Below, piece after piece: positions 23,234 through 26,150 of a stretch of DNA of 64,000 bases. The stretch is from Escherichia coli. GTDB lineage: Bacteria; Pseudomonadota; Gammaproteobacteria; Enterobacterales; Enterobacteriaceae. Each line of letters starts with the position of its first letter. Positions within the stretch are counted from its first letter, which is position 1. The position numbers were made by a program, and so were the translations under genes. The notes beneath the pieces are model-generated. The model worked only from the letters and a program-made list of their open reading frames with translations, was not told the origin of the DNA and made no database searches. The stretch lies in assembly GCF_016026235.1 (NCBI RefSeq), contig NZ_CP065613.1. One strand, written 5' to 3'.

Positions 23234-24487
23234 ATGCTGGAACAAATGGGCATTGCCGCGAAGCAAGCCTCGTATAAATTAGCGCAACTCTCCAGCCGCG
23301 AAAAAAATCGCGTGCTGGAAAAAATCGCCGATGAACTGGAAGCACAAAGCGAAATCATCCTCAACGCTAACACCCAGGATGTTGCTGACGCGCGAGCCAA
23401 TGGTCTTAGCGAAGCGATGCTTGACCGTCTGGCACTGACGCCCGCACGGCTGAAAGGCATTGCCGACGATGTACGTCAGGTGTGCAACCTCGCCGATCCA
23501 GTGGGGCAGGTAATCGATGGCGGCGTACTGGACAGCGGCCTGCGTCTTGAGCGTCGTCGCGTACCGCTGGGGGTTATTGGCGTGATTTATGAAGCGCGCC
23601 CGAACGTGACGGTTGATGTCGCTTCGCTGTGCCTGAAAACCGGTAATGCGGTGATCCTGCGTGGTGGCAAAGAAACCTGTCGCACTAACGCGGCAACGGT
23701 GGCGGTGATTCAGGACGCCCTGAAATCCTGTGGCTTACCGGCGGGTGCCGTGCAGGCGATTGATAATCCTGACCGTGCGCTGGTCAGTGAAATGCTGCGT
23801 ATGGATAAATACATCGACATGCTGATCCCGCGCGGCGGGGCTGGTTTGCATAAACTGTGCCGCGAACAGTCGACGATCCCGGTGATCACAGGTGGTATAG
23901 GCGTATGCCATATTTACGTTGATGAAAGTGCAGAGATCGCTGAAGCATTAAAAGTGATCGTCAACGCCAAAACTCAGCGTCCGAGCACATGTAATACGGT
24001 AGAAACGTTGCTGGTGAATAAAAACATCGCCGATAGCTTCCTGCCCGTATTAAGCAAACAAATGGCGGAAAGCGGCGTGACATTACACGCAGATGCAGCT
24101 GCGCTGACACAGTTGCAGGCAGGCCCCGCGAAGGTGGTGGCGGTTAAAGCCGAAGAGTATGACGATGAGTTTCTGTCATTAGATTTGAACGTCAAAATCG
24201 TCAGCGATCTTGACGATGCCATCGCCCATATTCGTGAACACGGCACGCAACACTCCGATGCGATCCTGACCCGCGATATGCGCAACGCCCAGCGTTTTGT
24301 TAACGAAGTGGATTCGTCCGCTGTTTACGTTAACGCCTCTACGCGTTTTACCGACGGCGGCCAGTTTGGACTGGGTGCGGAAGTGGCGGTAAGCACACAA
24401 AAACTGCACGCACGTGGCCCAATGGGGCTGGAAGCACTGACCACTTACAAGTGGATCGGCATTGGTGATTACACCATTCGTGCGTAA
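23234..24487 (+). CDS. proA: Gamma-glutamyl phosphate reductase
   Basis: 417-aa aldehyde-dehydrogenase-family ORF immediately after proB. Confidence 0.95.
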
Positions 24488-24601
24488 ATAAAACCGGGTG
24501 ATGCAAAAGTAGCCATTTGATTCACAAGGCCATTGACGCATCGCCCGGTTAGTTTTAACCTTGTCCACCGTGATTCACGTTCGTGAACATGTCCTTTCAG
24601 G

Positions 24602-24677
24602 GCCGATATAGCTCAGTTGGTAGAGCAGCGCATTCGTAATGCGAAGGTCGTAGGTTCGACTCCTATTATCGGCACCA
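24602..24677 (+). tRNA. thrW: tRNA-Thr (anticodon CGU)
   Basis: GCCGATATAGCTCAGTTGGTAGAGCAGCGCATTCGTAATGCG… cloverleaf with CGT anticodon loop and TTCGA T-arm, ending GGCACCA. Confidence 0.9.
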
Positions 24678-24803
24678 TTTAAATCAAGTAGTTACCCCAT
24701 ATTTAAATACACCACGTTTCCTCCTGTGCCGTATTTGTGCCATTGTAACCCTGGCAATTAATCAAAATACTGTTCTGACATCAGGCAATGCAGGTGCAGA
24801 CAT

Positions 24804-25214
24804 TTAAGCCAATTGCTGCCGCCATTCCTTGACGTGGTCAATCAGGGCGCGGAGCTTTGGTGCAATATTGCGACGCTGTGGGAAATACAGATAGAAGCCC
24901 GGAAATTGTGGAAGAAAGTCATCAAGCAGAGATACAAGCCTACCGCTTTCAATATATGGCCTGAAAGTTTCCTGAGTGGCAATTGTTATTCCTCCGCCGG
25001 CAAGAGCCAGCCTCAACATCAGACGCAGATCATTAGTCGTAATCTGTGGTTCAATCGCAAGGTCGAAAGTTCTCCCGTTTTCTTCAAATGGCCAGCGATA
25101 AGGCGCAACCTCCGGGGACTGACGCCAGCCGATACACTTATGGGTATTTCCCCCGGAGGTGAGAAAGCGCTTTCCACGCCCGGCCGCAAGGATCAGGACG
25201 ACGGGGGCAGGCAT
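24804..25214 (-). pseudogene. yagP: LysR-family regulator, C-terminal fragment only (no HTH domain)
   Basis: 136-aa ORF ending with typical LysR C-terminus (…FPGFYLYFPQRRNIAPKLRALIDHVKEWRQQLA); DNA-binding N-terminal half absent. Confidence 0.7.
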
Positions 25215-26150
25215 GAATCCTCCTCCTGATGGAGACGTACAGAGGCGACTTCTGCCAGCACGGAGAGTGCCAGAGTATGCGCATCCCGGGCTTTGGGGAA
25301 TATCCCGACGGGTGCCCGAATTTGCGCTGTCTCCTCCCTGGACCATCCCAGCTCGTGGAGCTTTTGCAGACGTAACGTGTGGGTTCGATAGCTGCCCAAT
25401 GCGCCGAGATAAAAGGGTTTTGCTTCTCGCGCGGCCTGCAACACTGGCAGCTCCCGGTTGAGATCATGGCACAGCAAAATGACCGCCGTATCGGTATCGA
25501 TCTGAGCGCTGGCTGAGGCCGGAAAAAGATCGAAGATATGGCTGTCATAGCCTGTGGCTGCTGCAAGACTCGCGGTTGCCTGCGCCTCAAGAGAACGTCC
25601 GTAAATCATCAGCCTGACGCATGGCCTGAACCCCACCTCAAAGCCATTGAGATTCCAGCCACGTTCGGGTTTGCGTGGGCAGGCACACCAACGATTGTGC
25701 TTGCGGATCGTAGCGCAGCCCCGCCGGTTTTCTCTGTTCCAGGCGGTTCAGCACGGCGAGCAGAGGCTGTGCCGAGCGTAGTTTATGGAGCGTCAGCGTG
25801 ATCCCACCGCCGCAGGGCAGAACGATGTCAAACCACGGCGAACCTTCGCCATAGCGAATTTCGCGATCGCAGCCTGAGCCCATCATCTCCAGCGCTTCAA
25901 AAGCGGCAGCGGCCTCCACGCAGCCGCCAGAGACAAAACCGCAGTAACGACCATCTTCGCGCACCACCATCTGCGCCCCGAGCGGGCGCGCCGCGCCGCC
26001 GCGTATCTCCACCAGCGTCACCAGCACCGCTCCTTTACCGGACATTAGCGCCTCTACGGCGAAGCGCAGAATGGTCCGGTGGTCATCGGTGAGAAACGCC
26101 TGCTCTGGCTTATGCCAGTGTTCGTCTTTATCAAAAAGCGGGTATGACAT
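25193..26150 (-). pseudogene. paoD: XdhC-family molybdenum-cofactor insertion chaperone, split by a frameshift
   Basis: Two abutting minus-strand ORFs in different frames (26150-25638 N-domain; 25636-25193 C-domain starting RLMIYGRSLEAQ…) that together span an XdhC-like protein. Confidence 0.7.

Follow-up and report, generated by a model that had tools for sequence, protein, structure and literature searches.

The 3' half of thrW, a gene for tRNA-Thr, is the attachment site (attB) in E. coli, Shigella and Salmonella for P22, SfI, SfII, SfV, SfX, CP4-6, PAI III-536 and VAT-PAI. The gene is among the most-used tDNA hotspots (PMC7545054). It carries CP4-6 in K-12 and is empty in strains W, B and Crooks (PMC3032704 Table 2), and the 'thrW/yagP' intergenic region is listed for genomes from E. 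coli B × K-12 crosses (PMC5809092). The 46-bp core of SfI, SfII, SfV, SfX and P22 has been published (PMC3636060), as has the general mechanism of heterobivalent tyrosine integrases with arm-type sites (PMC2951348). At thrW, tyrosine integrases recombine within the 3' half of the tRNA gene (core 24632-24687 in the coordinates used here), so that the gene is made whole again at one end of the insert and part of it is duplicated at the other. The elements that do so include P22-, SfV- and HK75-type phages, CP4-6 (IntF), P4-like satellites and several pathogenicity islands.

We analysed this locus in a 64-kb window of E. coli DNA, by which we mean the whole stretch studied. Very probably, the region is an attB without an insert, located in the 3' half of thrW of a B/C/Crooks-type E. 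coli strain, and the yagP pseudogene comes next. An empty thrW is a published and common state of a well-studied hotspot, and the finding matters little beyond correct annotation. With thrW empty, the strain is recognizable as a clean host for phages and islands that target this gene and for cloning vectors based on integrases.

The thrW gene, its att core and its occupants

ARAGORN identified one tRNA gene in the 64 kb, a tRNA-Thr(CGU) with anticodon CGT, located at 24602-24677 on the plus strand. The gene is intact, present in a single copy and identical to thrW of K-12. It stands 3' of phoE, proB and proA, with proA adjacent, as indicated by the ORFs of the window. The published 46-mer (PMC3636060) matches 24632-24677 exactly, and the attP of the free phage HK75 matches the window perfectly over 24632-24687, that is, over 56 bp and 10 bp beyond the 46-bp core. 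These alignments, and a comparison with attL and attR of K-12, define 24632-24687 as the att core, or crossover region, of the attB.

A first-pass annotation of this DNA had called the thrW site unoccupied, and our analyses bear this out: there is a single intact tRNA gene with no insert, and the junction to the next chromosomal gene is contiguous. No second copy of the last 25 nt or the last 15 nt of the tRNA occurs in the spacer or elsewhere in the 64 kb with 2-3 mismatches allowed, and a repeat search of 24400-25400 returned no direct repeat with the tRNA end, only short chance pairs. The same annotation had placed a cryptic prophage at this position in K-12. In the RefSeq record of K-12 MG1655, the cryptic prophage CP4-6 indeed lies between thrW and yagP, spanning 34 kb from 262898 (inside thrW) to 297205, and is followed by intF, yagP and paoD. 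CP4-6 is bounded there by a direct repeat of ~58 bp that corresponds to ~24630-24687 of the window, which has one copy.

Over 24300-25500 the window and E. coli strain C share 100% identity, and the best match over 8 kb is FDAARGOS_943 (99.9%). The same contiguous arrangement is found in strain B (C3029, BLR/BL21 lineage), ATCC 8739 (Crooks) and C, and the junction between thrW and the LysR fragment described below is unbroken in 768 of 5,426 complete genomes (14%). Approximately 86% of complete genomes are interrupted at the thrW core, with integrase genes at the breakpoints. In these split genomes the right-hand piece begins in the 3' half of the tRNA (24626-24661) and the left-hand piece stops at 24678-24745. 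The occupants seen were CP4-6, lambdoid and P22-like prophages, and a P4-like element. The site of the window thus combines an intact tRNA gene beside proA, a matching core in one copy, and interruption of the same position in other strains.

Two further records illustrate the variety of this neighbourhood. At thrW, E. coli O157:H7 F8492 carries a P4-like satellite (L001 1164-8467) that encodes ogr/Delta-like, Psu and Icd-like proteins and a primase-helicase, and in the attR of this satellite the tRNA is represented by no more than its final 17 nt. Such a short attR indicates that several integrase types with differing core lengths share thrW. In the strain C record (L002 1-484), an IS1A copy abuts the phoE 3' end, upstream of phoE.

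Precise excision by Int/Xis of CP4-6, or of another island or phage, from thrW of an ancestor would restore a clean attB and give exactly the sequence observed, and sequence alone cannot separate a vacated site from one never occupied in the lineage. Occupancy is the majority state of this site, which many elements use. However, thrW is empty in each of the related laboratory lineages B, C, W and Crooks, which is explained most simply if emptiness was inherited. We consider it unlikely that the site was vacated in this way, and such an excision is a variant of the unoccupied-attB explanation that does not contradict it.

An integrase-gene relic and putative arm-type sites in the spacer

The tRNA gene and the next chromosomal gene are separated by a spacer of 126 bp (24678-24803). 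The spacer had been described as free of integrase and phage genes. It contains no gene, but it is not free of phage sequence: at 24692-24745 (minus strand) we identified 54 bp that derive from the 3' end of an integrase gene of the HK75/P22 family. The relic, recognized by translation and by alignment with the HS prophage and HK75, consists of the stop codon and 17 codons with a 1-bp deletion. In gene order it reads NGTNTAQEE and, after the frameshift caused by this deletion, NVVYLNMG and stop; the C-terminus of the HS/HK75 integrase reads ...NGTNTAQEENVVYLNAR and stop. The remainder of the spacer (24746-24803) is featureless chromosomal sequence downstream of the LysR gene, recognizable as such in that the integrase homology stops at 24745 and the same sequence forms the attR-side flank in K-12 and O157:H7. 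A scan of 24400-25300 revealed no promoter-like or terminator-like sites.

The first-pass annotation had held that att-like direct repeats and phage remnants in the spacer would speak against an empty site. The repeats are absent and a remnant is present. Element genes bounded by att repeats, as in a cryptic prophage or an integrated island, are lacking, and all that was found is the 54-bp frameshifted int relic. With this relic in its spacer, the thrW site is still empty in a practical sense, though not pristine.

In strain HS, the integrase gene of a lambdoid prophage ends 15 bp past thrW, and similarity to the window runs ~50 bp into int. Integrases of the HS type are also found in the free phages HK75 and mEpX2. 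Beyond the perfect core, the attP of HK75 and the window are identical at 48 of 59 positions with one indel, up to an abrupt end at 24745. In the integrases of both the HK75 type and the P22/SfV type, HLTEHA is followed by 26 residues and the stop codon falls at the same base, and the tail motif N-(G/D)-T-N-(T/M)-(A/T)-Q occurs in integrases of Salmonella, Yersinia, Pectobacterium, Pantoea, Morganella, Vogesella and Chromobacterium. The relic retains the integrase reading frame in the spacer of E. coli CB7286 (NGTNTAQEENVV and stop). The thrW gene of CB7286 has two base differences in the T-arm region.

Within the relic, the 21-mer TGTGCCGTATTTGTGCCATTG (24725-24745) contains two GGCACA hexamers 11 bp apart, which correspond to TGTGCC-N5-TGTGCC with the hexamers at 24725-24730 and 24736-24741. 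This tandem pair occurs once in the 64-kb window. A scan of species-representative genomes for the exact 21-mer gave five loci and no E. coli representative; it lies within the 3' end of int in Vogesella, Pectobacterium, Shimwellia, an Escherichia sp. and a proteobacterial metagenome-assembled genome (MAG), the last with a tRNA-Thr of different sequence. The codons AAT GGC ACA AAT ACG GCA CAA are invariant at silent sites while the flanking codons vary, and this is true even of elements at other tRNA genes. Among integrases of the P22/HK75 family (int 3' ends L017-L022), tandem GGCACA, GACACA or GTCCCA hexamers with 11-bp spacing are seen in the last ~20 codons.

The attP of HK75 (L007 1747-1981) has five G(G/T)CACA sites in one orientation, and the three across the core form a single site and a tandem pair. 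In the attP of P22 (L023 1147-1382), GTCCCA occurs five times with the same arrangement. A heterobivalent tyrosine integrase would be expected to have arm-type sites in such a pattern. Family members with D...T instead of G...A in the tail carry GACACA twice. This covariation (88 matched versus 12 mixed combinations; Fisher p = 2e-15) was counted over 112 proteins with no correction for phylogeny, and the count is inflated by their shared ancestry. The conservation of silent sites across genera and tRNA targets suggests that the NGTNTAQ peptide is a by-product of embedded arm-type DNA sites. Conserved amino-acid motifs at the C-termini of integrases can thus be by-products of embedded DNA-binding sites.

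From the pattern of the sequence and this comparison, we infer that the hexamers of the window represent two P' arm-type sites for binding of Int, now putatively fossil (24725-24745, minus strand). Their layout is that of an attL (B-O-P'): the core is followed by TGTGCC at 24725 and at 24736, collinear with the attP of HK75.

The direction of transfer could also have been the reverse, with the 54 bp representing original host DNA that HK75-type phages captured through aberrant excision. The homology adjoins the att core and so lies within reach of aberrant excision, and hybrid host/phage tails show that exchange occurs at this site. However, the same motif with identical silent positions is present in Vogesella, Chromobacterium, Pectobacterium, Salmonella and the MAG, in some cases at other tRNA genes whose flanks are unrelated; the tails of the HK75 and P22 types are collinear and equal in length, with the same stop position; and the motif recurs on the P arm of the attP of free phages. 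A host origin is therefore very improbable, and we reject host-to-phage capture as largely refuted, the motif being intrinsic to the phage att/int module. The silent-site conservation across genera and the collinear tails indicate instead that the spacer sequence is a member of the phage int/att module and that the chromosomal copy is derived.

Given its sequence, the thrW site is best read as what looks like the fossil attL (B-O-P') of an old prophage, later reused as attB. An old HK75-like prophage would have lost everything from within int through attR, and the intact or regenerated tRNA gene with its core would have kept serving as attB for later elements. We infer this order of events, loss of the prophage and then reuse. 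The relic offers HK75-type phages a longer homology, and recombination with such phages has given rise to hybrid integrase C-termini. Lysogens of the P0001 type, a cluster of 1,125 sequences, have an attL that consists of the host relic to ~24715, followed by phage sequence. P0001 is the most abundant variant of this integrase in E. coli (lysogens L008 / L009, attL beside thrW), and its last seven codons (VVYLNMG) match the relic and not HK75. The hybrid P0001 tail points to crossovers in the extended homology beyond the 56-bp core.

We tentatively extend the fossil-attL reading to the species as a whole: it is possible that the thrW 'attB' is a species-wide fossil attL whose two putative P' arm sites HK75-type integrases continue to bind. 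In that case, the attR formed when HK75-type phages integrate would amount to an almost complete attP (P-O-P'relic). The efficiency of integration and excision would be biased by the relic, and its repeated exchange of sequence with incoming phages would produce hybrid C-termini, the abundant ...VVYLNMG among them. A tRNA attachment site that counts as 'empty' can be a fossil of an earlier occupant. We found no description of an integrase-tail relic beside the thrW core in the literature searched, and regard the relic as a minor new detail of modest weight.

The truncated LysR gene and the neighbouring paoD

The first gene past the spacer is a yagP-like ORF of 136 codons (24804-25214, minus strand). 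It matches the Pfam family LysR_substrate (PF03466) only at profile positions 104-207 of 209 (E = 7e-15), and no HTH domain was matched in the 136-aa ORF by Pfam. Residues 24-136 (24804-25142) share 97% identity with the C-terminal part, residues 187-299, of a LysR regulator that is intact in E. coli O157:H7 (299 aa). As the alignment begins at residue 187, the fragment is without the DNA-binding domain and the first half of the effector domain. It had been described as a LysR fragment lacking its DNA-binding half, which is correct, and it is even shorter than a C-terminal half. The ORF does not qualify as a LysR-type regulator, with no N-terminal winged HTH and an incomplete substrate-binding domain.

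A short stub ORF, which runs into the stop codon of paoD, contributed the first 23-24 codons of the chimeric ORF (25143-25214, minus strand). In O157:H7 this stub is an ORF of 26 codons (L001 about 15610-15690), and in the window (25143-25229, minus strand), where it has a strong Shine-Dalgarno sequence AGGAGGAGGATTCATG, it is fused to the LysR codons. The stub ORF has the look of the first codons of a fifth pao gene, since lost from the operon, and no Pfam family was assigned to it. For a possible likeness to the N-termini of MobA/MocA, we tried the stub (MPAPVVLILAAGRGKRF...) as a remnant of a MobA/MocA-like nucleotidyltransferase gene downstream of paoD and rejected this candidate, as Pfam gave only a sub-threshold and irrelevant hit (LonC_helical, E = 0.03).

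E. coli O157:H7 F8492 encodes the intact 299-aa LysR regulator at the same position. Between this gene and paoD it has genes for an SDR oxidoreductase, a hypothetical protein, a ykgR fragment, a second LysR regulator, an alpha/beta-hydrolase and an MFS transporter. BLAST alignment of the window with this genome extends up to 25142 and picks up again after a gap of ~6,134 bp, at a point immediately downstream of paoD. A 5-bp microhomology, TTATG (25138-25142), is common to both sides, and the junction (25138-25144) includes one extra G relative to O157:H7. This deletion junction is common to 2,683 of 5,426 genomes (49%), including K-12, and is found with thrW both occupied and empty; 414 genomes have an unbroken LysR gene at the junction point. 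An independent, smaller deletion in the same LysR gene, joined near the ykgR fragment, was seen in CB7286 (L006 4506-5085).

The truncation of LysR is a microhomology deletion with a chance fusion of two frames, separate from integration at thrW. Mechanistically, a microhomology-mediated loss of ~6.1 kb, which took with it the six genes or gene fragments listed above for O157:H7, fused the stub after paoD in frame to LysR codons 187-299. The first-pass annotation had taken the fragment to imply an older deletion or integration scar, of which the deletion is borne out. LysR is the first gene downstream of a heavily used integration hotspot, so that its truncation might have been left by an island that integrated and excised at thrW. 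However, the retained 3' end of the gene faces thrW and the spacer on that side is intact. The missing 5' half faces paoD, which puts the breakpoint on the far side of the fragment from thrW, 465 bp from the tRNA, where it is joined to paoD-side DNA by the 5-bp microhomology. In addition, thrW of O157:H7 is occupied yet its LysR gene is intact, and K-12 is occupied and truncated with the same junction. A scar of thrW integration is thus scarcely credible, being refuted by the mapped junction, and the yagP pseudogene says nothing on past integration.

The RefSeq annotation of K-12 lists yagP as a CDS and not as a pseudogene, so some residual function of the 136-aa product is conceivable. In strain C, PGAP annotates the LysR fragment as an incomplete pseudogene. 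Comparison of the window with K-12 revealed 5 nonsynonymous and 3 synonymous differences in the yagP ORF and 4 and 21, respectively, in proA (Fisher p = 0.02, with only eight substitutions in yagP). Small as these numbers are, the contrast fits relaxed constraint on a product that may be evolving like a pseudogene, and YagP is probably non-functional.

The paoD gene (25193-26150, minus strand), which is predicted to encode a molybdenum-cofactor chaperone of the XdhC family, is frameshifted in the window by an extra A at 25661. Pfam places XdhC_CoxI on 25638-26150 and XdhC_C on 25193-25636, in two separate ORFs. The extra A (CCAGCC-A-CGTT) does not lie in a homopolymer, and strain C, K-12, O157:H7 and the closest complete genome, FDAARGOS_943, lack it. 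Either the PaoABC maturation chaperone has been inactivated by a true mutation, or the base is an error of the assembly.

Comparison with described systems

When compared with the thrW attB of E. coli, Shigella and Salmonella, the window has the same tRNA gene beside proA, the same core and the same flanks as E. coli B, and it differs in nothing of substance. Its yagP shares with that of K-12 (b0282) the same 136-codon ORF, the deletion junction and the overlap with the paoD stop codon, and the two alleles differ at five amino acids. The neighbour of yagP is ptwF/intF, at the attR end of CP4-6, in K-12, whereas it is thrW itself in the window. Relative to the O157:H7 block of LysR, SDR, LysR, alpha/beta-hydrolase and MFS genes, the window is without the first 186 codons of LysR and the ~6.1-kb block.

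The closest described counterpart of the relic is the attP of P22, which presumably has five experimentally mapped arm-type sites. Its layout is that of the HK75-type attP, with a tandem pair in the tail of int, the core, a single site and a second tandem pair, although the hexamer is GTCCCA in P22 and GGCACA in the HK75 type. Of these elements, the core and the first tandem pair are retained in the window, which has the P' side only and has it in a frameshifted, non-coding relic.
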